Source of the DNA: an uncultured bacterium
GTDB taxonomy: Bacteria > RBG-13-61-14 > CAYWKU01
DNA length: 64,000 nt
Assembly (NCBI GenBank): GCA_964459325.1
Contig: CAYWKU010000014.1
Coordinates: 15,189-79,188 of the forward strand
Reading direction: 5' to 3'
Positions 30,943 through 50,651 of this stretch are shown piece by piece (the first letter of the stretch is position 1; each line of letters begins with the position of its first letter). The translations under genes were made by a program, and so were the position numbers. The notes under the pieces are model-generated. The model did no database searches and was not told the origin of the DNA. It saw only the letters and a list, made by a program, of their open reading frames with translations.

Positions 30943-33318
30943 TTGTATTTTCAAACCTCGTATGGAGGGTGGAAGCTGGTGGTAAAATATTTTCTTAAAA
31001 TTCAACCGGTTCTGTTTTGTGTTGCGCTGATTTTCTTCGCGCCACTCACCGGAGCCCAGGAAACCGAAGAAGAAAATCCGGCCACTGCCGAAGAGGAGAT
31101 AGCGGAGTCGGGCTTCGAAGAAACCGAAGCCGGTAAGCCGGAAACGGGTGGCGAAGAAGATGTAACACTGAACTTCGTCGACATGGAACTCAGCGAAGTA
31201 ATAACCAACATCTCGAAAATTACCGGCAAAAATTTCATTTGGGACAAAAAGGTAAGGGGAAAAGTAACCATCATCTCCCCCGAAGGCATCCCCGTCGAGG
31301 AGGCGTGGGAAGTTTTCCAGGCGGTTATGAGGTTTAACGGATATCAACTCGTGCCCGTAAAAGGAGTGAGGGAATTATATAAAATTGTCCGGGTGCAGGA
31401 AGCCGGCGGACAAACCATACCCACTTACACCGAAGGATTGTGGAGCCCGCGCACCGAGTCCTTCGTGACCAGGCTTCTCGAACTCCAGTATATCGACGCT
31501 CAAAGCGCGGCCCAGGTGTTGAATAACCTGAAAAGCAAGGAAGCCAAGGTTCTGCCATACCCGCCCACCAATACCCTGATAGTCATCGAAAGCGCCAACA
31601 ATTTGAACCGCCTCGTACGGGTGCTCCAGCAGATGGATGTGCCGGTCAAACTGCCCCAGGTGAAAATAATAAAGCTCAATTACGCCCCGGCGGAAAAAAT
31701 CGCCAGCGAGCTGTCCCAGATATTCAGCGAGGAATACCTCGGCGCCTTAATGGGAGGCGATACGGGTGGAGCCTCTTCACGCCAGGGGCGCTCCCGCAGA
31801 AGTCCGAGGCAGCAGGCTTCTTCCCAACAGGCCGGAAAGGCGCTCAAAATAATCCCGGACACGCGCACAAACTCGCTCATAGTAATCGCCACCGAAGAAA
31901 TAATGGGCGAAGTCATTCGGGTAATCGAGGAGCTGGACGTCGCCGTGGAAGGCGAAGAAGGTATATATGTCTATTACTGCCGGAACGCCTCGGCAGAGGA
32001 GCTGGCGTCCACTTTGTCTTCACTGGCGGGTGGAGGTAAAGGAGGAAGCCAGACCGGTGTTCGCGCAGTGGCGGCCAAAGCCAGGGAAGGCGGTGAACAA
32101 GGCGGCGGAAGACGGGAAGCTCAGCCCTCAAAGGGAGCCGCCGTAAGCCAGCTTGCGCTGGGAACGTTAAGCGGCGAGGTAAGGGTAACCGCCGACGAAG
32201 CCACCAATAGCCTGGTAATAGTGGCCAGTCGGAGAGACTATGCCATCCTGCGTAGTGTTATCGAAAAGCTGGACGTCAGGCGCAGGCAGGTATTCGTCGA
32301 AGCGGTTATACTGGAAGTGGAACTCTCCCGGAACGACAGCTTCGGCACCAGCCTGTCCGGCGCGGCGGCCATCGACCACGAAGCCGCCGTTTTCGGCTCC
32401 ACGGCCCTGGGCGGTTTGAACTCGCTGGGCATTCTCCCGGCACTCACAACCAACGGGGGCTCTCTGGGGGAAGCCATGCCCGGCGGCTTCAGCGTAGGCG
32501 CCCTGGGGAAAACCGTAACCTTGAATGTAGGCGGCGCCACCCTTGAGGTGCCCACTTTCAGCGCCCTGTTCAACGCCCTGGTGGCCACCAACAACGTCAA
32601 CGTGCTCTCCACGCCCAACCTGCTTACCACCGATAACGAGCAGGCGGAGATAGTGGTGGGGCAGAACGTTCCCATACCCACCGGCTCCACCGTCGGCTCC
32701 GGGGGCACCACCACCGTTACCATTCAGCGGCAGAACGTGGGCATCAAGATGAAGGTTACGCCCCAGATAAGTGAGAGCAAAACCATAAGAATGGTCATTT
32801 TCACCGAAATTTCCGGAGTGGTGCAAACCGCCGTGGCGGGAATCGACGTGAACACCCTGGGCGTCACCACCAGCATAAAGAGCGCTGAAACCACCGTGGT
32901 GGTGGACAACCACCAGACCGTGGTCATCGGCGGACTCATTGAAAACAGGAAGACCCGTTCCACCGGCAAGGTGCCGTTTCTGGGCGACATTCCCATACTT
33001 GGATGGCTGTTCAAAAGCCGTAGCGGGCAAAACACCAAGACAAACCTCGTCATCCTGCTTACCCCTCATATAGTCCGGGGCGCGGAAGATATGTCCGAGC
33101 TTTCCGACCGTTACAACCAGCGGCGAAAGCGGTTCCTGGACAAGGCTACGGGAGGTCGTTACGAGGAACCCTTCTATATGGAACCACTCATGCTGCCCGA
33201 GGATAACGCCACATCCGAAGAGAAAATAGAACCGTCACACGAAACATTCGAGAGAGAAAGAATAATCCCGGGACCGGAACCGTTAACGCCACAGAAAGAA
33301 GGGACGGCAGCGCCATGA
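30943..33318 (+). CDS. gspD: Type II secretion secretin D
   Basis: VTLNFVD, PDTRTNSLIV, LDVRRRQVFVEAVILEV, VLSTPNLLTTDNEQA, KVPFLGDIPILGWLF. Start may be GTG 30979. Confidence 0.95.
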   Translation: MYFQTSYGGWKLVVKYFLKIQPVLFCVALIFFAPLTGAQETEEENPATAEEEIAESGFEETEAGKPETGGEEDVTLNFVDMELSEVITNISKITGKNFIWDKKVRGKVTIISPEGIPVEEAWEVFQAVMRFNGYQLVPVKGVRELYKIVRVQEAGGQTIPTYTEGLWSPRTESFVTRLLELQYIDAQSAAQVLNNLKSKEAKVLPYPPTNTLIVIESANNLNRLVRVLQQMDVPVKLPQVKIIKLNYAPAEKIASELSQIFSEEYLGALMGGDTGGASSRQGRSRRSPRQQASSQQAGKALKIIPDTRTNSLIVIATEEIMGEVIRVIEELDVAVEGEEGIYVYYCRNASAEELASTLSSLAGGGKGGSQTGVRAVAAKAREGGEQGGGRREAQPSKGAAVSQLALGTLSGEVRVTADEATNSLVIVASRRDYAILRSVIEKLDVRRRQVFVEAVILEVELSRNDSFGTSLSGAAAIDHEAAVFGSTALGGLNSLGILPALTTNGGSLGEAMPGGFSVGALGKTVTLNVGGATLEVPTFSALFNALVATNNVNVLSTPNLLTTDNEQAEIVVGQNVPIPTGSTVGSGGTTTVTIQRQNVGIKMKVTPQISESKTIRMVIFTEISGVVQTAVAGIDVNTLGVTTSIKSAETTVVVDNHQTVVIGGLIENRKTRSTGKVPFLGDIPILGWLFKSRSGQNTKTNLVILLTPHIVRGAEDMSELSDRYNQRRKRFLDKATGGRYEEPFYMEPLMLPEDNATSEEKIEPSHETFERERIIPGPEPLTPQKEGTAAP

Positions 33319-35027
33319 ATGACCGCATAGGGGAAAGGCTGGTGGCAAAAGGTATACTGGACACCTCCGACCTGGAAAGGGCCTTACAAATCCAGAAGGA
33401 GAAGGGAGAAAGGCTGGGAAAGATATTAATGAAAGAAGGATTGGTGTCCGGGGATATACTTTACCGCGAACTGGCCTCCCAGATGGGGGTGGAGTATATC
33501 AAGGAAATCCCTCACGATGAAATGGACCTCGACCTCATCAAGGATTTGCCCATCCAGTTTGCCAAACGATACCAGATGCTGCCTTATGACCGAAAAAACG
33601 GAACCATACTGGTCGCCACCGCCGACCCGCTGAACTTTTACGCCCTGGATGACCTGAGGCAATTGCTCGGAACGGAAGTCCTGCCCGCACTCACCAATGA
33701 AGACGCGGTGATGGAAGCCATAAACGAAGTATACGACCGCGCCGCCGAAAGCGCTCAGAGAGCCATGGACGGCCTGAGCGACGAGAAGGGACTCGAGTCA
33801 TTAACTCACGAGTTCGACGAGCCTCAGGACCTGTTGGATGCTTCCGATGAAGCTCCCATCATAAGACTGGTAAACAGCCTGCTTTTCCAGGCCGTCAAGG
33901 AGCGGGCCAGCGATATTCACATAGAACCCTTCGAGAAGGAGGTGAGCGTCCGGTTCAGAATCGACGGCGTGCTCAGGGAAATAATCCGCCCGCCCAAACG
34001 GTTCCAGAACTCCATATCCAGCCGCGTTAAAGTCATGGCGGGGCTGAACATCGCGGAAAAGCGCCTCCCCCAGGATGGGCGTATCCGCATAAAAATCGCG
34101 GGCAAAGATATCGATATACGAATCTCGACAATACCCGTCGCTCACGGCGAACGGCTGGTGCTGCGGCTGCTGGACAAGGGCAGCATGATACTCAGCCTCG
34201 AGGACATCGGCATGGAAGGCGACGTCCTGTCCAGGATGAACCGGCTTATTCACCGCTCCAACGGCATAGTCCTGGTAACCGGCCCCACCGGCAGCGGAAA
34301 AACCACCACCCTGTACGCCTCCCTTACCCGCATAAACAAACCGGATTTAAACATCATCACGGTGGAAGACCCGGTCGAGTATCAGGTGCCGGGTATCGGG
34401 CAGATACAGGTTAACCCCAAGATAAACCTGACTTTCGCCAACGGCCTGAGAAACATACTGCGCCAGGACCCGGATGTCATCATGGTGGGGGAGGTGCGCG
34501 ACGTTGAAACTGCGGACATCGCCATCCAGGCTTCCCTGACGGGCCACCTGGTTTTCAGCACCCTCCACACCAACGACGCCGCCGGAGCGCTCACCCGACT
34601 GCTGGACATGGGAATAGAGCCGTTCCTGGTGGGCAGCTCTCTCGCTGCCAGCATGGCCCAGCGGCTGATAAGGGTACTGTGCAAAAATTGCCGCGAGCCT
34701 TACGAACCAACAGACGCGGAACTCGAAGAACTCGGCCTCTCCCGCGAGCAGGTGAGAGATGAGGGCTTCTACAGGCCGGTCGGTTGCGACCATTGCCTCA
34801 ACACCGGCTATTCCGGCAGAACCGGCATTTTTGAACTCTTGATGGTCGATGATGAAATCCGCGACCTGATAGTCAACCGCTCCGACAGCGTTAAAATCAA
34901 GAAAAGCGCTATGTCCAGGGGCATGAGAACCCTCCGGGACGACGGGGCGCTGAAAGTTATTGCCGGTGTTACCAGCGTAGCCGAGGTGCTTGCCGTTACA
35001 CAGGAAGACTCGGTACCGGTCACTTAA
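33315..35027 (+). CDS. gspE: Type II secretion ATPase E
   Basis: ASDIHIEP, GPTGSGKTTT, ILRQDPDVIMVGEVRD, TGHLVFSTLHTND, CxxC/CxxC. Confidence 0.96.
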   Translation: MNDRIGERLVAKGILDTSDLERALQIQKEKGERLGKILMKEGLVSGDILYRELASQMGVEYIKEIPHDEMDLDLIKDLPIQFAKRYQMLPYDRKNGTILVATADPLNFYALDDLRQLLGTEVLPALTNEDAVMEAINEVYDRAAESAQRAMDGLSDEKGLESLTHEFDEPQDLLDASDEAPIIRLVNSLLFQAVKERASDIHIEPFEKEVSVRFRIDGVLREIIRPPKRFQNSISSRVKVMAGLNIAEKRLPQDGRIRIKIAGKDIDIRISTIPVAHGERLVLRLLDKGSMILSLEDIGMEGDVLSRMNRLIHRSNGIVLVTGPTGSGKTTTLYASLTRINKPDLNIITVEDPVEYQVPGIGQIQVNPKINLTFANGLRNILRQDPDVIMVGEVRDVETADIAIQASLTGHLVFSTLHTNDAAGALTRLLDMGIEPFLVGSSLAASMAQRLIRVLCKNCREPYEPTDAELEELGLSREQVRDEGFYRPVGCDHCLNTGYSGRTGIFELLMVDDEIRDLIVNRSDSVKIKKSAMSRGMRTLRDDGALKVIAGVTSVAEVLAVTQEDSVPVT

Positions 35028-35033
35028 CAACAA

Positions 35034-36257
35034 ATGCCTGTATTCGAGTATAAAGGCTGGGATGCTCAGGGAAAGCGCACCCAAGGCGTAATAGACGCCG
35101 ACGGTCCCCAGGCAGCCAGGGTAAAACTCAAACGCGCCGGCATATACACTATCGAGCTTAATCAACGCAAGCTCGAGAAGGAAAAAACCTGGCAGCGTAA
35201 GTTATCCCTGTCCCGCAAAAGCGGCGGCATAGGCCGGCGTGACGTAAGTCTTTCCACAAGGCAGCTGGCTACACTCATCGGCGGAGGGCTGCCGCTCATA
35301 ACCGCCCTTAACGCACTTGTGGAGCAAGTGGAAAACGAGCGGCTGACGGCCGTTCTGTCCGATGTCAGAGAGAGAATCAACGAAGGCGCCAGCTTTGCCG
35401 ACGCCATGGCGGCACATCCCACCGTATTCTCACCCCTTTACGTTAACATGATACGGGCCGGAGAAACTTCCGGAGCGCTGGAAGTTGTGTTGAACCGGCT
35501 GGCGGATTTTCTGGAAGGGCAGGAAGAACTTCGCGGCAAAATCATGTCCGCCCTTATCTACCCGGCGATTATGCTGGCGGTGGGGATAATCGTGGTGCTT
35601 TTCATGGTGGGTTACGTTATTCCGCAAGTTCAGGTGATTTTCGAGGAAACTCAACAGGCGCTGCCGTTACCCACCACAATTCTGCTGGGTTTCACCGACT
35701 TTGTCCGCAGTTGGGGATGGCTGGCGGCATTGGGATTGATAGGGGCCATTTTCGGATTTCGCCACTACATAAAAACGGAAAAGGGCCGGAGAAAATGGGA
35801 CAGTCTCCGTATTAACGCGCCCGTCTTCGGCAAGCTCCACCTGACCGTGGCTACCAGCAGGTTCGCCAGAACCCTCTCGACCCTTTTATCCAGCGGCGTT
35901 CCGCTGGTGCGAAGCCTGGATATAGTGGAGCACGTGATGGGCAATACCCTCCTGGCCGAAGCGGTGCAAAATTCCCGAAACGCCATAGCCGAAGGCGCGG
36001 ACCTGGCTGCGCCGCTGAAGCAAAGTCAACTGTTCCCACCCATAGTGGTGCACATGGTGGCCGTGGGGGAAAAGACGGGCGAACTCGAGCAAATGCTCAC
36101 TCATGTAGCCGAGGCTTACGACACGGAGGTGGAGTTGCGGGTGAGGAGTCTGACCTCCATGCTGGAACCGGCCATGCTGATTATGATGGGCGCTGTTATA
36201 GGTTTCGTGGTGGTAAGCGTTCTGCTGCCCATATTCCAGATGACTCAGGGATTTTAG
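35034..36257 (+). CDS. gspF: Type II secretion inner-membrane platform F
   Basis: TRQLATLIGGGLPL, AGETSGALE, SALIYPA, GEKTGELE, MLEPAM. Confidence 0.95.
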   Translation: MPVFEYKGWDAQGKRTQGVIDADGPQAARVKLKRAGIYTIELNQRKLEKEKTWQRKLSLSRKSGGIGRRDVSLSTRQLATLIGGGLPLITALNALVEQVENERLTAVLSDVRERINEGASFADAMAAHPTVFSPLYVNMIRAGETSGALEVVLNRLADFLEGQEELRGKIMSALIYPAIMLAVGIIVVLFMVGYVIPQVQVIFEETQQALPLPTTILLGFTDFVRSWGWLAALGLIGAIFGFRHYIKTEKGRRKWDSLRINAPVFGKLHLTVATSRFARTLSTLLSSGVPLVRSLDIVEHVMGNTLLAEAVQNSRNAIAEGADLAAPLKQSQLFPPIVVHMVAVGEKTGELEQMLTHVAEAYDTEVELRVRSLTSMLEPAMLIMMGAVIGFVVVSVLLPIFQMTQGF

Positions 36258-39667: not shown

Positions 39668-40663
39668 ATGCCCGAGTTCAGACAGAACTTCGCCTCCAAG
39701 GAATGGGTCATCATAGCCACCGAGCGGGCCAAAAGACCCGGTGAATTTTCCTCCAACCGGGACCGCCGTCCCGAGCCGCCCTCACACGTGCCTGAATGCC
39801 CGTTCTGCGAAGGCAACGAAAATAAAACTCCCCCTCCAAAGCTGGTCATAGAAGACGACGAAAGCTGGAAAGTAAGAGTGGTGGCGAACAAGTTCGCCGC
39901 CGTTAACGAAAACCTGGACAGAACCATGCACAAGGAAGGCCTGTTCGTCAAAATCGACGGCTACGGAATAGCGGAGGTAGTGGTCGAAACCCCCGACCAT
40001 TCAAAAACCATCGGAACCCTGAGCATGGAAGAAGTGTTTGACGTGTTACTCGCTTATAGGAGCCGTTACCAGAGCATAGCCGCCGACCCGAACGTGGCCC
40101 TCATAAACATCTTCCGGAACCACGGCCCGAAGGCCGGTACCAGTCTGGAACACCCCCACTCGCAGATAATCGCCACCCCGATAGTGCCGCCTCACGTGAG
40201 GGACCCGGTAATCAAGCTCATGAGAGCCTACGACACTTACGGCACTTGCATATACTGCGACATGCTGGAAGCGGAGCTTAAAGCCAAGGAAAGAGTTATC
40301 ATGGAGACCCGGCATTTCGTGGCGCTCTCGCCATACGCGGCAAGGTCTCCCTTCGAGGTGCGAATTTACCCCAAGCGTCACTCGGCGGTATTCGGGAGCG
40401 TGACCGACGCGGAACTGGAAGACCTCGCGGAAACACTGAGAGTGACCATGAAAAAAATATACGTGGGTCTGGACAACCCCGATTACAATTACATTATCCA
40501 TTCCGCGCCCCTCGACCACTACGATTCCCGCTTTTTCCACTGGGCGATTATCATTGTGCCGCGACTTACCACCCCCGCAGGTTTCGAAATGGGCACCGGG
40601 ATTTACATTAACATCACTCTCCCGGAAAATTGCGCCGACTACCTGCGGGAAACGGAGGTATAA
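39668..40663 (+). CDS. galT: Galactose-1-phosphate uridylyltransferase
   Basis: WVIIATERAKRP, CPFCEGNE, FRNHGPKAGTSLEHPHSQ, PAGFEMGTG. Confidence 0.93.
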   Translation: MPEFRQNFASKEWVIIATERAKRPGEFSSNRDRRPEPPSHVPECPFCEGNENKTPPPKLVIEDDESWKVRVVANKFAAVNENLDRTMHKEGLFVKIDGYGIAEVVVETPDHSKTIGTLSMEEVFDVLLAYRSRYQSIAADPNVALINIFRNHGPKAGTSLEHPHSQIIATPIVPPHVRDPVIKLMRAYDTYGTCIYCDMLEAELKAKERVIMETRHFVALSPYAARSPFEVRIYPKRHSAVFGSVTDAELEDLAETLRVTMKKIYVGLDNPDYNYIIHSAPLDHYDSRFFHWAIIIVPRLTTPAGFEMGTGIYINITLPENCADYLRETEV

Positions 40664-40664
40664 A

Positions 40665-41081
40665 GTGTCCGACCGGCTGCGCCCCATCGGGGTGCTCCAC
40701 ACCAACCTGAAAACACTCGACCAGTGCCCCCGGCAGGGCTCGATAACCGATAACGAAGGAGAAGCCGAAATTTTTCCGGAATACGCCGAAGGACTTAAAG
40801 GCATGGAGCGGCGGTCTCACGTGTGGTTACTATACCGATTCGACTCTTCAGAGCCGGTCTCCCTGCTCGTAAAGCCGCCTCACTCGAACAAACAAAGGGG
40901 CCTTTTCGCCACTCGCAGCCCTTACAGAATCAATCCCATAGGACTCACTCTGGTAAAAATAGCGCAAGTGAAAGAAAATCGAATAAAATTCATCGGAGCC
41001 GACATGCTCGACGGCACCGCTCTACTGGACATAAAACCCTACTCTGAGGAGATAGACGGCCCGTGCGAGCAATCAAAGTAG
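40665..41081 (+). CDS. trmO: tRNA m6t6A37 methyltransferase TrmO (TsaA/YaeB), N-terminal domain only
   Basis: PIGVLHT, GLFATRSPYRINPIGL, DMLDGTALLDIKPY. GTG start at 40665. Confidence 0.88.
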   Translation: MSDRLRPIGVLHTNLKTLDQCPRQGSITDNEGEAEIFPEYAEGLKGMERRSHVWLLYRFDSSEPVSLLVKPPHSNKQRGLFATRSPYRINPIGLTLVKIAQVKENRIKFIGADMLDGTALLDIKPYSEEIDGPCEQSK

Positions 41082-41302
41082 CCTTAACACTCCTTTAAAT
41101 GAGTACTGAAACCTTTTTTTTGCGTACGAGCACGCATGACGTGACTTTAATTCCACAAAGACGGGTAAGCCCCTTGTCCGCACTTTTATTTCGGTGTTAT
41201 TCTTTCCAATGCCAACTGCGGATAATTTAGTCGTTCTCGCCTTTCCGCCGTTTGTATTTTACCGTAGAACTCTAATCACTTACATAGAGAGGAGATAATC
41301 CA

Positions 41303-43024
41303 ATGACAAAAATGACCCCGTCGGAAGCGCTGGTAGAAACCCTGGTCGCCGAAGGAGTTCAGACGGTGTTCGGTATCGTGGGCAGCGCATACATGGACGC
41401 CCTAGACCTTTTCCCCGCCGCAGGTATCCGGTTCGTAAGCACCGCCCACGAGCAAGCCGCGGCCCACGCGGCGGACGGTCTCGCAAGGGTAACGGGCAGG
41501 CCGCAAGTATGCATCGCCCAGAACGGCCCCGGGGCCGCCAACTTCGTCAGCGCCATTACCGCTGCTTACTGGGCACACTCACCGGTTGTGGCGATAACTC
41601 CCGAAACCGGGAGCGTGGGAATAGGCACCGGTGGTTTCCAGGAACTTGACCAGATGCCATGGTTCCAGGCGTGCACCAAGTACCAGGTGCGCGTCAACAG
41701 GCCGGAGCGCATGGCCGAATTCGCTCGCAGATGTTTCTACGTCGCCAAAACCGAATGCGGCCCCACCCAACTCAATATCCCCCGGGATTACTTTTACGGG
41801 GAAATAGATACCGACATTTTCAAAACCCCCGAAATTCAACACGGCGCCGGCGCCGAGGAACAGCTCGACAAGGCCGCGAAAATGCTCCTGGATGCCAAAT
41901 ATCCGGTAATCCTGGCCGGTGGCGGCGTTGCCCAGTCAAACGCCACGGAAGAAACCGAGTCGCTCTGCGAATACATGACCGCACCCGTGGTTAACACGTA
42001 CCTCCATAACGACAGCTTCCCCACCGGCCACGACCTGAGCGTGGGGCCCATCGGGTACTGCGGCTCCAAGGCGGCCATGAGAACGCTCGCAAAGGCAGAC
42101 GTTGTACTGACGCTGGGAACCCGATTGGGGCCGTTCGGCACCCTGCCGCAGTATGACATGAATTACTTTCCCGATAACGCCAAAATTGTCCAGGTGGACA
42201 TCGACCACCGGGTAATCGGCCTGAGCAAAAAGGTGGATTTGGGAATAGTCGCCGATGCCCGTCAGTTCGCCGGCAGGTTGCTGGAAAGAATCAAAGCCAA
42301 AGACCCGGCGCGAAAACCCGACCGGGAGAAACTCGAAGAAATTCAAAAGGAAAAGGACACCTGGGCCGAGGAGCTCAACGGCTGGTCGAGCTCGAACGCA
42401 AAACCCATGCACCCCCGTCGATTGCTCAAGGAACTGTCATCGGCGGTGCCGAAAGGCTCCCCCGTAACAACCGACGTGGGCAACACCTGCTCCATGTGTA
42501 ACGCCTACTTCGGCGCCACCGGCCCGGGACAGTTTCTTGCTCCTCTCAGTTGGGGCAACTGCGGAATCGCTTACGGAGTGGCAATGGGCGCAAAGATGGG
42601 CAACCCCTCAAAGCCGGTCTTTGCCCTCCAGGGCGACGGAGCTTACGGCATCAGCGGCCTGAGCGAAGTAATGACCGCCGTCAGGGAAGAAATACCGGTG
42701 ATAGCGGTGGTGTTCAATAACAACCAGTGGGGCGCGGAAAAGAAGAACCAGATAGACTACTACGACGACAGATTCGTCGGCGCCAACCTGCAGAATCCCG
42801 ACTTCGCACAACTGGCCCGGGACATGGGGGCGGAAGGATACCGCGTTGAAGAACCGGACCAGGTCGGGGACGCCGTGCAGGCGGCCTTGAAGTCCGGAAA
42901 ACCCGCCGTCATAGACGCAATAATCGACGGCTCCGCCGAAGTGCTGGCCGAACCCTTCCGGCGGGACGCGCTCAAAAAACCCGTGCGTTATCTGGACAAA
43001 TATAAACACCTGACCGTAAAGTAA
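41303..43024 (+). CDS. xsc: Sulfoacetaldehyde acetyltransferase (ThDP enzyme)
   Basis: MTPSEALVE, FGIVGSAYMD, HEQ, QNGPG, AAYWAH, GGFQE, LNIPRDYFYG, GDGAYG, NNQWGAEKKNQ...FVG: Xsc-specific motifs rather than AlsS/IlvB. Confidence 0.9.
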   Translation: MTKMTPSEALVETLVAEGVQTVFGIVGSAYMDALDLFPAAGIRFVSTAHEQAAAHAADGLARVTGRPQVCIAQNGPGAANFVSAITAAYWAHSPVVAITPETGSVGIGTGGFQELDQMPWFQACTKYQVRVNRPERMAEFARRCFYVAKTECGPTQLNIPRDYFYGEIDTDIFKTPEIQHGAGAEEQLDKAAKMLLDAKYPVILAGGGVAQSNATEETESLCEYMTAPVVNTYLHNDSFPTGHDLSVGPIGYCGSKAAMRTLAKADVVLTLGTRLGPFGTLPQYDMNYFPDNAKIVQVDIDHRVIGLSKKVDLGIVADARQFAGRLLERIKAKDPARKPDREKLEEIQKEKDTWAEELNGWSSSNAKPMHPRRLLKELSSAVPKGSPVTTDVGNTCSMCNAYFGATGPGQFLAPLSWGNCGIAYGVAMGAKMGNPSKPVFALQGDGAYGISGLSEVMTAVREEIPVIAVVFNNNQWGAEKKNQIDYYDDRFVGANLQNPDFAQLARDMGAEGYRVEEPDQVGDAVQAALKSGKPAVIDAIIDGSAEVLAEPFRRDALKKPVRYLDKYKHLTVK

Positions 43025-43078
43025 TTGTCTATAATTGAAGCCCGGGGAGCGGTCAGGGTGTGAAATAACGGAGCCTGA

Positions 43079-44287
43079 ATGAAAGTCCTCGTCCTCAACA
43101 GCGGCAGCTCCAGCTTGAAGTACAAAGTCCTGGAAATGCCCGATGAAACCGGCCTGGCTTCCGGCCGGGTGGAAAAAATCGGCGAGCCGGACGGTTGGGC
43201 CTTTCTCGTACATACCATGAAGGACGGTACGGGCTACGAATCCGACGTGGAAAGCCCTGACCACAAGGAAGCGCTGAAACGCGCCCTGGACGCCATATCC
43301 GACCCGGAAAAGGGTTGCATATCCGAGGTAAACGAAATCGGAGCAGTGGGGCATCGCGTCGTACACGGCAGGGACATATTCCACGGCCCGACCACGGTCA
43401 CCGATGAGGTGCTGGAGCGGATGAAGGAGCTGGTGGAACTGGCGCCTCTGCACATGCCCGCCAATATAGCCGGCATCGAGGCCTGCCTCGAGCTGCTACC
43501 CGGAGTACCGCAGATAGCTCACTTCGACACTTCATTCTACCGCACTATGCCCATGCATTCCTACTTGTACCCGGTACCCACGGAATGGCACGAAAAGTAC
43601 GGCGTCCGGCGGTACGGTTTTCACGGAATATCCCACCAGTTCGTCACAATGGTAGCCTCGGAGCTTACGAATATTCCTCCCGAAAAGCTCAAGCTCATAA
43701 GCGCCCACCTGGGCAACGGCGCCAGCATTACCGCTTTCAAGGAAGGTGGAGTGCTGGACACCAGCATGGGCTTCACGCCCCTGGAAGGCCTGATGATGGG
43801 CACCCGCTGCGGATACCTCGACCCGGCGGTCATACCCTACATCGCCTCCAAAACCGGCGCGGCGGTCGCTGAAATCGAGCGCACCCTCAACAACGAAAGC
43901 GGCCTGGAGGCCGTCAGCGGCGTCGGAAGGGACATGCGCAAAATACTGGCCGCCAGAGCTGAAGGCAACGAAAAAGCGGAGTTGGCCTTCCGGATGTTTG
44001 TACACACCCTCCGTAAATATATAGGGGCCTACTTCTTCGCCATGGGAGGCGCGGACGTGGTGGTGTTCACCGGCGGAATCGGTGAAAACTCGCCCGAGGT
44101 CAGGTGGGAGGCGCTGGAAAATCTCGAACACTGGGGAATCCGCATGGACAAAAAGAAAAACGAAGACGCCCTCGGCGGCGAACCCGCCTTCATAAACGAC
44201 GAATCTAGCACGGTAAAGCTGATGGTCATACCCACCAACGAAGAGCTGATGATAGCGAGGGAGACTTATAAATCAGTGGTAAAATAG
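43079..44287 (+). CDS. ackA: Acetate kinase
   Basis: LVLNSGSSSLKY, GHRVVHG, APLHMP, RRYGFHGISH, HLGNGAS, TPLEGLMMGTRCG, FTGGIGENS, PTNEELMIA. Confidence 0.96.
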   Translation: MKVLVLNSGSSSLKYKVLEMPDETGLASGRVEKIGEPDGWAFLVHTMKDGTGYESDVESPDHKEALKRALDAISDPEKGCISEVNEIGAVGHRVVHGRDIFHGPTTVTDEVLERMKELVELAPLHMPANIAGIEACLELLPGVPQIAHFDTSFYRTMPMHSYLYPVPTEWHEKYGVRRYGFHGISHQFVTMVASELTNIPPEKLKLISAHLGNGASITAFKEGGVLDTSMGFTPLEGLMMGTRCGYLDPAVIPYIASKTGAAVAEIERTLNNESGLEAVSGVGRDMRKILAARAEGNEKAELAFRMFVHTLRKYIGAYFFAMGGADVVVFTGGIGENSPEVRWEALENLEHWGIRMDKKKNEDALGGEPAFINDESSTVKLMVIPTNEELMIARETYKSVVK

Positions 44288-44341
44288 TTACTTAAATTCA
44301 TGGCTCAATGCATTGAACCGTTGATAGTTACTCAGCCCATT

Positions 44342-44445
44342 CCGCTTTCCTGAGGAGGAGCCCCGAAGGGGCGACATCTCGAAGGGAGCGGAATTGGCCG
44401 CCCTTCGAAACGTTACACCGTTGGCGTAACTCCTCAGGAAAGCGG
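44342..44445. repeat. Cloverleaf palindromic repeat element
   Basis: Perfect 16-bp outer stem CCGCTTTCCTGAGGAG / CTCCTCAGGAAAGCGG enclosing three hairpins; between convergent genes. Confidence 0.75.
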
Positions 44446-44498
44446 CCAATTCCTTAATTAACAGTCACTTGAGCACATAAAAGGTTAAATAGAATCAA

Positions 44499-46451
44499 TC
44501 ATTGAAAATGCTCCCTCAACAGCCTGTTCAGGTTTTCCCGTGCCGTTGGCTGGTTGGGGTCGATGCTCAGGGTCTTTTCGAGCAGGCGTCGCGCCTTTTC
44601 GTACTCACCCTTGTTTATGTGTATCACCGCCAGGTTGTTATAAGGCGTGGTGTAGCCGGGAGATATTTCAATCGCCTTGCGGAAGGCGGCTTCGGCCTTC
44701 TCCATCCGGTCCAGGTTGACGTAGATGCTTCCCAGGTTGTAATGGCCGTGAGCGCTGTTCGGCTCAATTTCCAAAGCCTTCTTTATCAAATCGAGGGCTT
44801 CGCGGTGCTTTCCGGTTTTGTTCAACGCCACCGCCAGGTTCCGCATGATGTCGGGGTTGTTGGGAGCAAGCTCGTGGGCCACCCGCCACTGCCGCCGCGC
44901 CTTATCCGGCTCGCCCGCCTGCTCGTAGACGTATCCCAGCGACTGGTAAGTGTTTTCGCTTTGAGGGGCTTTGCTTACCGCGTCCTCCCACAAGCGCTTT
45001 TCGCTCGAGTACACGTAGTTTCGGTGCACCGTCAGCATGGAGAAAAACACCACCATCGCCGCCGTCGCAACCGCGAGCGTGCGTTTATCCCTCTTACGTG
45101 GGGAACGCAATAACCGCTCAGCTACAGCCCCCGCCACCAGCAACAGCCCGAAAAGCGGCACGTAAAGCCGCCGCTCGGCTACCAACTGGTTCAGTGGAAT
45201 CAGGGTTTCGGGCAGGAGGGATATTATGTACCACGCCCCGCCCAGCATCGCCAATCGGCTACGCGAGCGGACTATGGCAAAGGCTATCCCCGCAAGTATC
45301 ACAACCGAAACGCCGGGCCAGGCTAATATCGGCGCGCCGGCCTTCCATAAAGTCGAGAACTCGGGAAAATGGTGATAAATGTTCAAATCATTCGGCCACA
45401 ACACAAACCGGATGTAATAAACGAGCACCGAAAGCTGGGTGAGCAGATTTTCGCCGTAACCCCTGACGGGGTTGTCCACGGCTACCGTATCCAGGCTGAG
45501 CGCCGCGTTGCGCACGATGAGATAAACCACCGCCACTGCGGCAAAAGGCGCATAACGGCGCACATCGTCCGCGAAGCTTTCCTCGCGCTCTTTATCCAGA
45601 AGCCGGTCTGAGAGCCACATTATTGCCGGCAGGACGATTATGTTCTCCTTTACCAGCAACCCGGCGGCGTAAGCGGCCACCGCCGCCCAACGGTACGCTT
45701 TCACTCGCGCCCTTTCACGCCACAGCCGGTGGAGCAGAAAGCTTCCGAAAAAAAATACTCCCACCAGCGACGCCGACCGGCTCGAGACGTAATCCACAAC
45801 CTCGGTGTTCACCGGATGCACGGCAAACACCAGTCCCATTCCCAGCGCCAACCAACGCCTTCGGGTAAGCACAAGCACCAGTCCCGCTACAAACAACGAT
45901 GAAAGCCAGTGAATCCCGAGGTTGCAAAAATGCCACCCGGCGGGATTGTAGCCGAATATCGAGTGGTTAACCAGGTAGCTCGTCAGCAGGAACGGCCGGA
46001 ACATCCTCCGGCCCGGCAGTATCGAGAAGGTTTGAGGGTCGGTAAAGAACTTTCCGATATTGCCCGCGTCGCGAATTGCGGGGTTTTCAACTATTGAATG
46101 CCTGTCGTCGAGCGTGAAGGGCACATCGAGGCCGTTGGCGTAGACACCTCCCACAACCACCGCCAACAATACCGCCGCCACGAGCATCCGCTTCCACGTG
46201 ATGGATGGCTCCGCGGCGACACCGGTTGCCATGCCCTTCTCCGTGGTTTTCTTCTCAACCTCCCGCTTTTGCGGCTTTTTCTTTTTTCCGGAAGGTTTGG
46301 ATTTTGCCCCGCCCGATACCTCGTCCACCGCTCGCTGAACGTCATCCTCGCTCAAGCTCAACTGCCGGGCCAATTGGGAAACCGACTTGTTTTTCCACTC
46401 CCGCTCTATAACCCGCCGCTGCTTCGGAGTAATTTTATCGCCTTTGGCCAT
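44499..46451 (-). CDS. TMTC-like GT-C glycosyltransferase with C-terminal TPRs
   Basis: FTLDDRHSIVEN acidic loop, FRPFL, HPVNTEVVDY, KENII, AERRLYVP, multiple TMs, TPR repeats. Confidence 0.82.
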   Translation of the reverse strand: MAKGDKITPKQRRVIEREWKNKSVSQLARQLSLSEDDVQRAVDEVSGGAKSKPSGKKKKPQKREVEKKTTEKGMATGVAAEPSITWKRMLVAAVLLAVVVGGVYANGLDVPFTLDDRHSIVENPAIRDAGNIGKFFTDPQTFSILPGRRMFRPFLLTSYLVNHSIFGYNPAGWHFCNLGIHWLSSLFVAGLVLVLTRRRWLALGMGLVFAVHPVNTEVVDYVSSRSASLVGVFFFGSFLLHRLWRERARVKAYRWAAVAAYAAGLLVKENIIVLPAIMWLSDRLLDKEREESFADDVRRYAPFAAVAVVYLIVRNAALSLDTVAVDNPVRGYGENLLTQLSVLVYYIRFVLWPNDLNIYHHFPEFSTLWKAGAPILAWPGVSVVILAGIAFAIVRSRSRLAMLGGAWYIISLLPETLIPLNQLVAERRLYVPLFGLLLVAGAVAERLLRSPRKRDKRTLAVATAAMVVFFSMLTVHRNYVYSSEKRLWEDAVSKAPQSENTYQSLGYVYEQAGEPDKARRQWRVAHELAPNNPDIMRNLAVALNKTGKHREALDLIKKALEIEPNSAHGHYNLGSIYVNLDRMEKAEAAFRKAIEISPGYTTPYNNLAVIHINKGEYEKARRLLEKTLSIDPNQPTARENLNRLLREHFQ

Positions 46452-47219: not shown

Positions 47220-48350
47220 TCAGGTCAGGAAACTGTAAATAACGCAGGCCACCACGCTGGATGCCAGGATACCGCCCATGTTCGGCCCCATGGCGTGCAT
47301 TATGAGGTAATTCGAGGCGTCGGCCTTCCTCCCCTCCGCCTGCACTACCCGGGGGCTATGAGGCACCGCCGCCAGTCCGGCGGCCCCTATGAGCGGGTTT
47401 ATATCCCCCTTCCCCAGAGCTTTCATCACCCTCGCTATCAACACTCCCGCCGCCGTACTCAGCACGAACCCCATAAGCCCCAGGCCGAGTATACCCAGAG
47501 TTTTGAAATTCAGGAACTTATCGGCGCTCAACGTATAGCTTATCCCGAACACCAGGCAGATGATGAAGATGTTGGTTATCTCGTTCTGAGCGGCATGGCT
47601 AAGCCGGTCGGTCACTTGGCTCTCCCTGAGCAGGTTCCCCGCCAGGAAAAAGGCGAACAACGGGGTGCCGACCGGCAAAAGCAGGGAAGCTATAACTGTC
47701 ACCGCCACTACGAAAATAACTTTCTCCGCCCGGCTCACACTCCTCATTTCGGCCATCGAAATGCGCCTTTCGCGAGCCGGAATAAGCAGTCTCATCACGG
47801 GCGGCTGTATAAGGTGCACCAATGCCATGTACAGGTACGCCGTTACCACGATGGGGCCTATCAACTCCGGCGCCAGGCGCGTGGCCATGAACACGGTAAC
47901 CGGCCCGTTGGCCCCTGCGATTATACCTATGGCCGCGGCTTCCTTTAGGCCGTAACCTGCAACCGCCGCCAATAGCAGCACCGCGAACTGCCCCACCTGG
48001 GCCGCCGCGCTTATGAGCATCACCCCCGGCCTCGCCAGAAGCGGCCCCAGGTCGGTCAACGCCCCCACCCCGAAAAACAACAGGATGGGCGCAATGTCGG
48101 TCATTATGGTGTAATCGAAAAAGTAACGGAACATCCCGCCCGGCTCGTGCGCCAGCAGGCCGCTGGCGGGGATGTTGGCGAGGATAGTGCCGAAACCGAG
48201 CGGCAAAAGCAGGAGCGGCTCGTAATCCTTCCTGATGGCGAGATACATCATCCCGCAGCCGACGAGCATCATCACCAGGTTGCCCGCCCCCAGTTGCGAG
48301 AAACCGGTCACGCTCCAGAAGTCTTCAAAAATCTCCAGCAAATTCGCCAA
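47220..48350 (-). CDS. Na+-translocating decarboxylase beta subunit (OadB/MmdB/GcdB)
   Basis: YEPLLLLPLGFG, AAAIGIIAGANGP, YLYMALV, PLIGAAG, HAMGPNMGG. Confidence 0.92.
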   Translation of the reverse strand: MANLLEIFEDFWSVTGFSQLGAGNLVMMLVGCGMMYLAIRKDYEPLLLLPLGFGTILANIPASGLLAHEPGGMFRYFFDYTIMTDIAPILLFFGVGALTDLGPLLARPGVMLISAAAQVGQFAVLLLAAVAGYGLKEAAAIGIIAGANGPVTVFMATRLAPELIGPIVVTAYLYMALVHLIQPPVMRLLIPARERRISMAEMRSVSRAEKVIFVVAVTVIASLLLPVGTPLFAFFLAGNLLRESQVTDRLSHAAQNEITNIFIICLVFGISYTLSADKFLNFKTLGILGLGLMGFVLSTAAGVLIARVMKALGKGDINPLIGAAGLAAVPHSPRVVQAEGRKADASNYLIMHAMGPNMGGILASSVVACVIYSFLT

Positions 48351-48351
48351 C

Positions 48352-48720
48352 CTACCCTATGGTTACGAGCTTGTCCCCGGTCTTTACGTGGTCCCCCACC
48401 GATACGTGGATTCGGGTAACCATGCCGTCCATCGGAGCCATGACGGGGTTTTCGATTTTCATTGACTCGACCACCATAAGCTCGTCGCCCTTTTTCACCC
48501 GGTCGGAAACCTTAACCTTTATTCTGAGAACTTTTCCGGGAATCGGGGCGGCAACCGCCCCGTCCGATACCGTCGCCGCAGACGGGGCGGGAGTTCCCGC
48601 ACCTTCGGTGAAATTGCTCGATTGCACCCTGTTTATCCTGTGTTCTCCCTCACCCAATTCCTCCACTTCGACTTCGAAGGTTTTTCCGTTGACGGTCACT
48701 CTGAACTTGCGGGTTGCCAA
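48352..48720 (-). CDS. Biotin carboxyl carrier subunit of the decarboxylase
   Basis: FRVTVNGK, APIPGKV, VESMKIEN biotinylation motif. TTG start after GGAGGAG. Confidence 0.92.
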   Translation of the reverse strand: MATRKFRVTVNGKTFEVEVEELGEGEHRINRVQSSNFTEGAGTPAPSAATVSDGAVAAPIPGKVLRIKVKVSDRVKKGDELMVVESMKIENPVMAPMDGMVTRIHVSVGDHVKTGDKLVTIG

Positions 48721-48722
48721 GT

Positions 48723-49025
48723 TTATTCTCCTCCCTCGGGCAGGTCGGATTCGGCGAGCGTTCTCCACGCATCCGCCTCCCCTTCCGGCTCTATATCCGG
48801 TATGAAAGGGGTTTCGGGCATCTCGAAGAAAAAGGAAATCGCCCCGGCTATCGCCGCCATTCCTTCATCACTGAGCTCACCTTCTGTGACTTCGACCAGT
48901 GTTTCGGTGGCATCGGCGAAAAGCTTCTTTACCAACTTGGCCACACCGATAAAGAAGAGAATTATTATCAGGGTGGCTATGAAGCTGACCAGCGAAACCT
49001 CAAGCCCTTGTACGAAAGCGCTCAT
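48723..49025 (-). CDS. Decarboxylase delta/gamma (OadG/MmdD-like) membrane subunit
   Basis: Single N-terminal TM, AAIAGAI motif, C-terminal W; position in the operon. Confidence 0.75.
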   Translation of the reverse strand: MSAFVQGLEVSLVSFIATLIIILFFIGVAKLVKKLFADATETLVEVTEGELSDEGMAAIAGAISFFFEMPETPFIPDIEPEGEADAWRTLAESDLPEGGE

Positions 49026-49035
49026 CGATTCCTCG

Positions 49036-50589
49036 TCACATAGGGATGTTTCCGTGTTTTTTTCGGGGGCGCGGCTCCTTTTTGCCCCGCATGAAATCCA
49101 GATACTTTATCAAGGCATTCCGGGTTTGCGCCGGCTCGATGACGTCGCCGGCAAGCCCGAGCTCCGCGTTTCTCACCGGCTCGCCGAAAGTGTCGCGGTA
49201 CCATTCAACTTTTTCCCGCCGGAAAGCTTCCGGTTCTTCGGCCTCCTTGATTTCTTTGGCCATCAACAAATCCACCGCCGCTTCGGCTCCCACCACGGCG
49301 ATTTCAGCTGTAGGCCACGCCAGTATCAGGTCCGAGCCCAGGCCCTTGTTGCCGCCCATTGCTAATATGCCGCCGCCGTAGCCTTTGCGCAGCACCACCG
49401 TTATTTTTGGCACGCTTGCTTCGCAGTACGCGTAAAGCATTTTGGCGCCGTGACGGATTATCCCCGCATGTTCCTGTTCGGCTCCCGGCAAGTACCCCGG
49501 CACGTCCGCGAAGTACACGATGGGTATGTTGAAGCAGTCGCAAAACCTGACGAACCGGGCACTCTTATCGCTGGCATCCACCGTCAGCGCGCCGCCCATG
49601 GACATGGGCTGGTTGGCTATTATGCCCACCGGGCGTCCATTCAACCTTATAAAACCAACCACCAGGTTGGTGGCGAACTCCTCGTGGATTTCCATAAAAT
49701 CGCCGAAATCTCCCACCCGGCGGATAATTTCCCTCACGTCGTAAGACTTGCGCCCGTCCTCGGGCACAATCGAAGCAAGCTCCCCGTCCTCCCGTTCCGA
49801 ATCGTCAACTTGTACGGCGACCGGGGGATCTTCGAGGTGATTTTGCGGCAAAAAGGCCAGTAGCCTCTTCACCGAATCGAAGCATTGCGCCTCATCCGGA
49901 AGTGCGAAATGAGCGCATCCGGTAACCTGCGAGTGCACTTTCGAGCCCCCGAGTTGTTCGCTGGTGAATTGCTCCCCGGTGACCGATTCAATCACCCGGG
50001 GGCCGGTGATATGCATGTAGGAAATTTCGTCCACCATGAAGACGAAATCCATGAGTGCGGGCGAGTAGACGCTTATCCCTGCGCATGGTCCCATTATGAG
50101 GGCGATTTGAGGCACCACGCCGGATGCCAGGGTGTTTGGGAGAAACAGGGAGCCGCCGTCCCTGCCGCCGCCCCATCCTTCCTGGATACGGGCGCCGGCG
50201 CTGTCGAAAAGGCCGATGACCGGAACGCCCCTCTTGCGGGCCCAATCCACCGTTTCGCACATCTTCCTGCCGTGCACCGCGCCGATGCTTCCTCCAAGCA
50301 CGGTGAAATCCTGGGCAAATATGCAAACTTTCCTGCCGTTAACTTCGCCGAACCCGGATATCAGCCCGTCTCCGTGGAAACGCTTTCTGTCCATTCCGAA
50401 TTCCGTGGCGCGGGTGGTAACCAGGGGGTCGAATTCCGTGAAGGCGCCGGGGTCTAGCAGCTTGTCTATTCTTTCCCGGGCGGATAATTTGCCCTTATCG
50501 TGTTGCTTATCGAGCTTCTCCTTGCCTCCGCCGGTCAGGGCTTTATCCTTTATTTCTCGCAGCCCCCGGATTTTGTCGTCCATGCTCAT
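49036..50589 (-). CDS. Acyl-CoA carboxyltransferase alpha subunit (methylmalonyl-CoA decarboxylase / PccB type)
   Basis: QHDKGKLSARERI, QDFTVLGGS, DSAGARIQEG, GPCAG, DVPGYLPG, RKGYGG, KKHGNIPM. Confidence 0.92.
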   Translation of the reverse strand: MSMDDKIRGLREIKDKALTGGGKEKLDKQHDKGKLSARERIDKLLDPGAFTEFDPLVTTRATEFGMDRKRFHGDGLISGFGEVNGRKVCIFAQDFTVLGGSIGAVHGRKMCETVDWARKRGVPVIGLFDSAGARIQEGWGGGRDGGSLFLPNTLASGVVPQIALIMGPCAGISVYSPALMDFVFMVDEISYMHITGPRVIESVTGEQFTSEQLGGSKVHSQVTGCAHFALPDEAQCFDSVKRLLAFLPQNHLEDPPVAVQVDDSEREDGELASIVPEDGRKSYDVREIIRRVGDFGDFMEIHEEFATNLVVGFIRLNGRPVGIIANQPMSMGGALTVDASDKSARFVRFCDCFNIPIVYFADVPGYLPGAEQEHAGIIRHGAKMLYAYCEASVPKITVVLRKGYGGGILAMGGNKGLGSDLILAWPTAEIAVVGAEAAVDLLMAKEIKEAEEPEAFRREKVEWYRDTFGEPVRNAELGLAGDVIEPAQTRNALIKYLDFMRGKKEPRPRKKHGNIPM

Positions 50590-50651
50590 CGGATAGAAAT
50601 ATACCCCCACGCGCCTTGACGGTCAACAGGCTCTTTATTCATGAATTCCGC

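Follow-up and report, generated by a model that had tools for sequence, protein, structure and literature searches.

Linked genes for sulfoacetaldehyde acetyltransferase and acetate kinase in an uncultured bacterium likely form a two-gene module for energy conservation from a sulfonate

Taurine, isethionate, DHPS, sulfolactate and other organosulfonates make up large pools of sulfur and carbon, and their anaerobic breakdown yields sulfide. The route via sulfoacetaldehyde acetyltransferase (Xsc) is both oxygen-tolerant and ATP-yielding. In Taurinivorans muris LT0009 taurine is respired by means of Tpa, Ald and Xsc together with AckA and DsrAB-DsrC, with sulfite as electron acceptor (PMC10507020). 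According to Denger et al. 2001 (cited in PMC10507020), Desulfonispora thiosulfatigenes ferments taurine via Xsc; for D. ruminis a genome-based prediction combines Tpa-Xsc, acetate kinase and sulfite as acceptor (PMC3569383). The chemistry that leads from Xsc to AckA is hence already known from these three organisms. Classical aerobic clusters join xsc to pta (Ruff et al. 2003, as cited in PMC6453916); we found xsc followed by pta in Rhodococcus pDK3, Caballeronia pNK83 and Paracoccus jeotgali, an order by which acetyl phosphate is converted to acetyl-CoA for growth. Bilophila and Desulfovibrio use an isethionate sulfite-lyase route, IslAB/IseG with SarD/TauF, in which a radical enzyme yields acetaldehyde and the gain of ATP requires AdhE, Pta and AckA (PMC6386719, PMC6453916).

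The locus described here resembles that of T. muris in that Xsc would form acetyl phosphate and sulfite, AckA would form ATP and sulfite would be respired by Dsr, in an anaerobe that is here predicted from its genes. It differs in that xsc and ackA are adjacent, that neither Tpa, a recognisable taurine transporter nor Pta was found in the genome, and that the host belongs to another, small uncultured phylum. Anaerobic use of Xsc and conversion of acetyl phosphate to ATP by acetate kinase are shared with Desulfonispora and D. ruminis, but these are Firmicutes, unlike the host, and in D. ruminis tpa adjoins xsc while the acetate kinase is encoded elsewhere, whereas here ackA adjoins xsc and tpa was not found. 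With the classical xsc-pta clusters the locus has the enzyme family and the first product, acetyl phosphate, in common; however, ackA stands in the place of pta and the Xsc is only 43-53% identical to theirs. Like the isethionate sulfite-lyase route it would release sulfite anaerobically from C2 sulfonates for Dsr respiration, but the three glycyl-radical enzymes of the host all score under every equivalog cut-off. What is new is the recurrence of the pair in 22/81 related loci, the single clade of xsc-linked AckAs, and the separation of both genes from the copies of the host phylum. In addition, an uncultured phylum that bears DsrAB and AprA joins the users of the Xsc route.

The window, by which we mean the whole stretch of 64,000 nucleotides analysed, carries both open reading frames on the same strand and 54 bp apart, exactly as the initial annotation had them, and the pairing is confirmed (Table 1). 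Neighbouring genes were annotated with Pfam and NCBIfam. On the upstream side are gspD/E/F, an FG-GAP/TPR protein, a galT-like HIT protein and trmO, and the minus strand on the downstream side encodes a TPR protein, a macro-domain protein, a Na+-translocating acyl-CoA decarboxylase set and chorismate synthase. No sulfonate genes occur among these flanking genes, and it was likewise correct that pta, a taurine transporter, an aminotransferase, a sulfite exporter and a sulfite dehydrogenase are absent beside the pair. In promoter and terminator scans that performed at chance level for the locus, no terminator was predicted in the spacer between xsc and ackA, which makes it probable that the two genes are co-transcribed. 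Rfam families gave no match in 40900-44600, leader region included. The repeat that closes the unit was compared with a MITE at 2005-2160 and is unrelated to it.

Table 1. Features of the xsc-ackA unit, in coordinates of the window
Feature	Coordinates	Strand	Details
Leader/promoter region of the pair	41082..41302	+	221 bp; sequence read; single occurrence in the genome
Terminator-like hairpin of the upstream trmO unit	41162-41180		inside the 221-bp leader
AGGAG ribosome-binding site	41290-41294		8 nt 5' of the xsc ATG
xsc, sulfoacetaldehyde acetyltransferase	41303..43024	+	573 aa; family models, invariant columns, trees
Intergenic spacer xsc/ackA	43025..43078	+	54 bp; GGAG at 43070-43073, 5 nt 5' of the ackA ATG
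ackA, acetate kinase	43079..44287	+	402 aa; Pfam/NCBIfam matches, AckA tree
Palindromic repeat element closing the unit	44288..44498	.	fold -75.9 kcal/mol; about 5 partial copies elsewhere in the genome

The xsc product is a three-domain ThDP enzyme with full-length matches to PF02776, PF00205 and PF02775. It scores 765.2 bits on the TIGR03457 equivalog (cut-off 676.4) and 839.9 bits on NF005713 (cut-off 620); the next best models, those of acetolactate synthase, give at most 370 bits and stay under their own cut-offs. The catalytic Glu (Glu50) and the ThDP motif GDG(444-446)...NN(472-473) are present, and the alignment shows E50, G444-D445-G446 and N472-N473 to be invariant in 14 clade members. 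With IlvB and ThDP2, another ThDP enzyme of the host to which we return below, as root, the tree separates the protein from other ThDP enzymes and nests it inside the Xsc family, a 91-row clade (SH-aLRT 100). This clade includes the Ruegeria/Paracoccus/Ensifer, Rhodococcus and Caballeronia/Cupriavidus types, which occur in cultured degraders of taurine or sulfoacetate; the plasmid sequences among them are annotated orthologues and not the assayed proteins themselves. Models and tree thus identify the enzyme as a true Xsc, of which the host genome has one copy. Within the family it falls in a separate clade (SH-aLRT 100) with Desulfobacterota, Spirochaetota, Myxococcota and others; this clade is rich in anaerobes, and the neighbours of the protein are Syntrophales and other Desulfobacterota. 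The protein shares 51-60% identity with Burkholderiales Xsc, 53% with the Rhodococcus type and 43% with the alphaproteobacterial type. Both the separate clade and the identity to Burkholderiales Xsc contradict the betaproteobacterial type that had been proposed. To our knowledge no member of this clade has been assayed, and the PDB holds no Xsc structure.

Neither Pta (PF01515) nor PduL nor phosphoketolase was detected in the host genome, which is 97.8% complete, and its other ThDP paralogues are IlvB or remain without family assignment, with no pyruvate oxidase among them. Acs is present (1059 bits), as are paralogues of the ACD family. Since acetate/acetyl-CoA traffic could go via Acs and the enzymes searched for were not found, AckA appears to be without a CoA-linked partner, and the simplest reading is that it is dedicated to an acetyl-phosphate-forming ThDP lyase. 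We consider it likely that xsc and ackA together make up a two-gene operon for energy conservation from a sulfonate, with AckA dedicated to Xsc. Xsc, by means of its ThDP, would add to sulfoacetaldehyde and then eliminate sulfite; phosphorolysis of the resulting acetyl-ThDP would give acetyl phosphate, from which AckA, using ADP, would produce acetate and one ATP. We infer that flux runs in this direction, from sulfoacetaldehyde towards ATP. The released sulfite would probably be reduced by the DsrAB system of the host, which by its gene content looks like a sulfate-reducing anaerobe. It encodes three glycyl-radical enzymes with their activases, in line with the anaerobe initially supposed. 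Furthermore dsrA (576.6 bits, cut-off 392.9) and dsrB (520.4 bits, cut-off 341.5), both at C4:68291-70563, and aprA (935 bits, cut-off 642) are all over their cut-offs, which makes respiration of sulfite possible. The sister genome G051 carries the same xsc-ackA pair, and dsrA was not found in it. Among the genes that the initial annotation proposed to look for in the genome, dsrAB is present while pta, tpa and sauS were not found. Its energy module holds as regards a real Xsc, the unit with ackA, the missing pta, the anaerobic host and Dsr; its Xsc type is wrong, and its named substrates, discussed below, lack support.

AckA matches positions 1-392 of the 392 of PF00871 with 473.8 bits and TIGR00016 with 460.5 bits (cut-off 293.4), and one ackA copy was found in the host genome. 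All xsc-linked AckAs (20/20), that of the window included, fall in one 25-row clade (SH-aLRT 98), and the linkage label requires 4 changes on the AckA tree versus 15.1 in shuffles. The window AckA shares 59% identity with an xsc-linked AckA of Desulfobacteraceae versus 44-47% with the AckAs of its own phylum. AU tests rejected one origin inside the host phylum both for AckA (p = 0.0003) and for Xsc (p = 0.0005), in each case with groups that were chosen with the trees already in view; by these tests xsc and ackA are each shown to be phylogenetically separate in origin from the host-phylum copies. This bears on the alternative that AckA is a general acyl-phosphate kinase of the phylum, which serves also or mainly an acyl-phosphate-forming ThDP2 and has Xsc as one client. 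Pta over cut-off was found in 0/13 genomes of the phylum, yet AckA occurs in 10/13, including G052 and G058 in which AckA and ThDP2 are present and Xsc and Pta absent, and in G057 ackA adjoins ThDP2. These cases suggest a second source of acyl phosphate, which AckA may have besides Xsc. As an account of the pair, however, a general kinase is unlikely, since the ackA-ThDP2 adjacency is the single one seen outside xsc clusters, the window AckA groups with the xsc-linked clade rather than with the clade of AckAs proper to its phylum, and the closest solved relatives of ThDP2 release aldehydes or acyl-CoA, not acyl phosphates.

A tblastn search of the host genome with Tpa-like neighbour proteins gave three matches. 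The third, on contig C5, is weak; the stronger two are class-III aminotransferases, namely BioA (531 bits), which lies in a bioFADB cluster, and ArgD; no Tpa was recognised. SauS, ComDE, an Fe-ADH at SarD level, the xsc-linked SDR-A and the xsc-linked transporter were not found in the host genome either, nor could any of its genes be named as a sulfonate transporter. No assignment as SarD, IslA or HpsG was reached for the Fe-ADHs and glycyl-radical enzymes of the host, and the SDR at 5453-6205 of the window is no orthologue of either xsc-linked SDR family. Taurine, isethionate and sulfoacetate, the substrates named initially, are thus left with no recognisable feeder enzymes (Tpa, SauS, ComDE, SarD) in the host. 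Elsewhere, close relatives of xsc adjoin a Tpa-like aminotransferase, SauS/SauCD, or an SBF/MFS transporter with an SDR, and in clade members at 64-72% identity xsc lies directly beside the Tpa-like aminotransferase or SauS/SauCD. Such sulfonate neighbours support sulfoacetaldehyde as the substrate of the clade. They count against a second alternative, that the Xsc-like enzyme makes acetyl phosphate for AckA from another substrate, either a beta-substituted aldehyde or a 2-oxo acid (glycolaldehyde or sulfopyruvate, for instance), and that there is no sulfoacetaldehyde module. The want of a sulfoacetaldehyde-forming enzyme in the host genome would fit another substrate, as would the observation that xsc in the host phylum is mostly solitary, with no sulfonate neighbours. 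Nevertheless we regard it as improbable, given that the protein is over the equivalog cut-off and nested in the Xsc family, and that in the host phylum dsrA was found only together with Xsc (6/8 genomes with Xsc versus 0/5 without).

The distribution of the pair, which the initial annotation had suggested as a check, shows xsc-ackA linkage to be spread over about 6 phyla, and the Xsc tree requires no fewer than 17 changes to account for it. In sister genome G051 (locus L011) the pair is retained with a 59-bp gap. Retention and recurrence argue that the juxtaposition did not arise by chance, and the pair behaves like a portable unit. All linked genomes that were checked carry a single ackA. Canonical Pta is absent in 13/16 linked versus 14/35 unlinked genomes, an association that is seen in the raw counts and lost in phylogenetically independent pairs, where it is not significant (median p = 0.25). 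That xsc lies beside a housekeeping ackA by chance, or that the genes form a biosynthetic run from acetate via acetyl phosphate to sulfoacetaldehyde, is very improbable: an ackA without xsc linkage lies, in G055 and G062, close to the galT-like gene that also borders the window pair, so that the locus may be an old ackA site, but the linkage is too widespread, the linked AckAs form one clade to which that of the window is closer than to its own phylum, and reversal of C-S cleavage, which the biosynthetic direction would need, is thermodynamically implausible.

The practical value of the xsc-ackA unit lies less in the two genes than in the pointer they give to an unstudied pair of a dehydrogenase and a ThDP lyase, which may open a new way in for C3 sulfonates. 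This conserved pair, SDR-B and ThDP2, is located on another contig of the host (G000:C26:40304-42870, with SDR-B at C26:40304-41134 and ThDP2 at C26:41164-42870), and is the best candidate source of sulfoacetaldehyde. The two genes that follow ThDP2 were considered as transporters and ruled out. We found no description of the SDR/ThDP2 pair in the literature searched. Oxidation of a C3 sulfonate such as dihydroxypropanesulfonate, sulfolactaldehyde or sulfolactate, followed by ThDP-dependent C-C cleavage or decarboxylation, would yield sulfoacetaldehyde; alternatively ThDP2 itself would form an acyl phosphate. Tentatively, and with doubt prevailing, we propose that SDR-B/ThDP2 is in one of these ways the feeder, and with it a route, so far undescribed, into the xsc-ackA module, which would be laterally mobile, have its own AckA clade and serve Pta-less lineages. 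The closest solved relatives of ThDP2 are benzaldehyde lyase and 2-hydroxyacyl-CoA lyases, and the SDR/ThDP2 pair co-occurs with xsc and tracks it across the Desulfobacterota.

The window carries a true gene for sulfoacetaldehyde acetyltransferase (xsc), followed on the same (+) strand by a gene for acetate kinase (ackA), and the core of the initial annotation, in which desulfonation by Xsc is coupled to ATP formation by AckA, holds. The mechanism is already established in the literature. For Taurinivorans muris, passage of acetyl phosphate from Xsc to AckA with sulfite as electron acceptor is described in PMC10507020. The D. ruminis genome paper describes the same mechanism with Tpa-Xsc and acetate kinase (PMC3569383), Xsc serves taurine fermentation in Desulfonispora (cited in PMC10507020), and carriage of Xsc by some sulfate or sulfite reducers has been noted (PMC6453916). 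The present pair is a further case of this known module. In classical aerobic clusters, by contrast, pta follows xsc, as the annotation had stated and as was confirmed for Rhodococcus pDK3, Caballeronia pNK83 and Paracoccus jeotgali. New here are the stripped two-gene form in a phylum with no Pta found, evidence that xsc-linked AckAs form a clade of their own, evidence that the pair has an origin separate from other copies in the phylum and, as the most promising lead, an association, now quantified, between xsc and a so far unstudied pair of SDR and ThDP-lyase genes.

Both open reading frames and their spacing of 54 bp were exactly as first annotated. The spacer holds no terminator-like hairpin according to the terminator scan; such a hairpin is found upstream of xsc, and neither leader nor spacer matched an Rfam family. 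The unit is closed by a palindromic repeat, of which about five partial copies occur on other contigs of the host genome. Its membership of the MITE family at 2005-2160 was considered and rejected, the two being unrelated.

Coordinates of the features discussed (window positions unless a genome or locus is named; G000, host genome; L, loci in host or related genomes)
Feature	Position	Strand	Remarks
gspD-gspE-gspF	30943-36257		complete type II secretion block
galT-like HIT-family gene, then directly trmO	39668-41081
Terminator-like hairpin	41162-41180		3' of trmO
Shine-Dalgarno of xsc	41290-41294	+	AGGAG
xsc	41303-43024	+	573-aa ORF
Shine-Dalgarno of ackA	43070-43073	+	GGAG
ackA	43079-44287	+	402-aa ORF
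Palindromic repeat	44288-44498		211 bp, intergenic, strongly self-complementary, MFE -75.9 kcal/mol
Na+-translocating acyl-CoA decarboxylase genes	47220-50610	-	carboxyltransferase, biotin carrier, OAD_beta pump subunit
SDR-B and ThDP2	G000:C26:40304-42870 (L089:10305-12871)		outside window; ThDP2 29 bp after SDR-B; downstream of polA
Glycyl-radical enzymes	G000:C1:154236-158113, C12:80634-84159, C10:1228-3639		PFL2/glycerol-dehydratase subfamily
ackA and ThDP2 orthologue	L109:9513-12652; G057:C1:1515560-1518648		sister family
Decarboxylase homologues	L101:2841-6645		G053, another family
ORF of about 930 aa	G002:C14:56707-61063		MAG labelled Thermodesulfobacteriota
ORF of about 930 aa	G006:C399:5171-8958		MAG labelled Desulfomonilaceae

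The Xsc contains three ThDP-enzyme domains and exceeds the cut-offs of the NCBIfam models TIGR03457 (765 bits, cut-off 676) and NF005713 (840 bits, cut-off 620); acetolactate synthase models give at most 370 bits, under their own cut-offs. All of its relatives compared share the catalytic Glu50 and the GDG...NN cofactor motif; the PDB holds no Xsc structure. The protein is nested deep within the Xsc family, rather than grouping with other ThDP enzymes, in a tree of 91 Xsc sequences for which IlvB and a second ThDP family served as outgroup. Its clade (56 rows, SH-aLRT 100) includes Desulfobacterota, Spirochaetota, Myxococcota, Acidobacteriota, Gemmatimonadota and others, and the nearest rows are Syntrophales and Thermodesulfobacteriota (76-79% identity). 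Judged by identity, the types of cultured aerobes are more distant: 53% for Rhodococcus, about 51% for Caballeronia and Cupriavidus, and about 43% for Ensifer, Paracoccus and Ruegeria. Uncultured Betaproteobacteria of the sampled set reach 60%, and the label 'betaproteobacterial type' was wrong, since the protein belongs to a separate clade and Burkholderiales Xscs are 51-60% identical. Sulfoacetaldehyde is the probable substrate of the entire clade, a reading supported because the xsc genes of members with 64-72% identity adjoin genes for Tpa-like class-III aminotransferases, Na:alanine symporters, SauS/SauCD, or an SBF/MFS transporter with an SDR.

The host assembly (3.80 Mb, 74 contigs, 97.8% complete, the window being on contig C14) contains one true xsc and one ackA, the latter encoding a full-length acetate kinase. 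The annotation had noted that no pta lies beside the pair; at this completeness, searches of the whole genome for Pta, PduL and phosphoketolase gave no match. The remaining ThDP paralogues, each either IlvB or without family assignment, include no pyruvate oxidase. The strongest genomic argument for AckA working on the acetyl phosphate that Xsc would produce is that the host acetate kinase is without a CoA-linked partner. Acetate and acetyl-CoA can be linked through an AMP-forming Acs (1059 bits) and ACD-family paralogues, both encoded in the genome. Because dsrA, dsrB and aprA each score above cut-off and three glycyl-radical enzymes are present, the host probably lives anaerobically by reducing sulfate or sulfite, in agreement with the earlier proposal of a probable anaerobe passing sulfite to respiration or disproportionation. 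Two TauE-family genes were also found. Scanned genes adjoining the glycyl-radical enzymes on C1 and C12 are activases. At least five paralogues in the host (C1, C16, C34, C22) share 35-38% identity with a large sulfatase near xsc in L011, the locus of sister genome G051, which suggests that the host may degrade sulfated polymers.

Across 81 Xsc loci (that of the window and 80 others, each species represented by a single genome), ackA is beside xsc or in its cluster in 22, from Spirochaetota, Desulfobacterales, Myxococcota, MAGs labelled 'Rickettsiales', Alpha- and Gammaproteobacteria and the window's lineage. On the Xsc tree, linkage must have been gained or lost at least 17 times. Every linked genome examined has a single ackA. 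Canonical Pta is absent from 13 of 16 linked versus 14 of 35 unlinked genomes, a trend not significant in phylogenetically independent pairs. The AckA tree is more informative than these counts. All 20 xsc-linked AckAs fall within one 25-row clade (SH-aLRT 98) on this unrooted tree, whose housekeeping AckAs are from Desulfobacterota only; the linked label changes 4 times versus 15.1 in shuffles (0/500 as low). Most unlinked Desulfobacterota AckAs, many of them pta-adjacent, lie outside that clade. In two Desulfobacterota MAGs, G002 and G006, an ORF with a C-terminal match confined to the second half of PTA_PTB is found 2-3 kb away from ackA and may encode a non-canonical phosphotransacylase; G002 is without canonical Pta and G006 also has one.

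The host's GTDB phylum has only 13 species representatives (G000, G051-G062). Pta (PTA_PTB family, above cut-off) was found in none, Acs in all 13, the second conserved ThDP enzyme (ThDP2) in 11, AckA in 10, Xsc in 8 and DsrA in 6 (6/8 Xsc carriers versus 0/5 without Xsc). Only in the window's family (G000, G051) does xsc adjoin ackA. The window AckA is 44-47% identical to sister-family AckAs versus 59% to an xsc-linked Desulfobacteraceae AckA, and AU tests, with groups chosen post hoc and the trees already in view, reject a single clade of the phylum's AckAs (p = 0.0003) and of its Xscs (p = 0.0005). The simplest reading is that the pair came into the window's family as one unit, possibly displacing an ackA that had occupied the locus before, because in relatives G055 and G062 an unlinked ackA lies near the same galT-like gene.

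The substrates first listed, taurine, isethionate and sulfoacetate, fared less well than the mechanism. Searching the host genome by tblastn with Tpa-like neighbour proteins gave three class-III aminotransferase matches, the two strongest of which were rejected as BioA and ArgD. Neither SauS, ComDE, SBF/MFS transporter orthologues nor an orthologue of SDR-A, the SDR family preceding xsc elsewhere, was found there; none of its Fe-ADHs or glycyl-radical enzymes passes the cut-off for SarD, HpsG or HpfG, and the three glycyl-radical enzymes also stay below those for CutC and HypD. A candidate feeder is the pair formed by ThDP2 and the dehydrogenase SDR-B. In about eleven loci of Desulfobacterota and Spirochaetota, orthologues of the two occur in a single cluster that also holds xsc, SDR-A, genes for a transporter and a TetR regulator and, in some cases, ackA. 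Among 151 evenly sampled genomes from the class of Desulfosarcina widdelii, Xsc is present in 25 and absent from 6 of the 31 with ThDP2, and present in 13 and absent from 107 of the 120 without it (odds ratio 34, Fisher p 9e-14, uncorrected for phylogeny). Of the 25 genomes carrying both, 16 have the two genes at most about 6 kb apart. The nearest solved relatives of ThDP2 are benzaldehyde lyase, oxalyl-CoA decarboxylase and 2-hydroxyacyl-CoA lyases. We infer that SDR-B would oxidise a C3 sulfonate and ThDP2 would cleave or decarboxylate the product to sulfoacetaldehyde. No description of the two enzymes as a pair turned up in the literature searched. As a variant, ThDP2 might itself make an acyl phosphate, as is suggested by sister-family genome G057, where ackA is directly upstream of the ThDP2 orthologue and xsc on another contig, and by G052 and G058, which have AckA and ThDP2 and neither Xsc nor Pta.

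The flanks of xsc-ackA are unconnected with sulfonates. Upstream are gspD/E/F, an FG-GAP/TPR protein, the galT-like HIT protein and trmO; downstream, on the minus strand, are a TPR protein, a macro-domain protein, the decarboxylase set and chorismate synthase. GspE has an MshEN-type c-di-GMP-binding motif at its N-terminus. The true start of trmO is likely GTG 40665, with GGAGG in front, rather than TTG at 40554. The decarboxylase genes lie 3-6 kb downstream of the pair, and homologues with 45-53% identity lie directly 5' of xsc in G053, which may reflect conserved synteny or a functional link.
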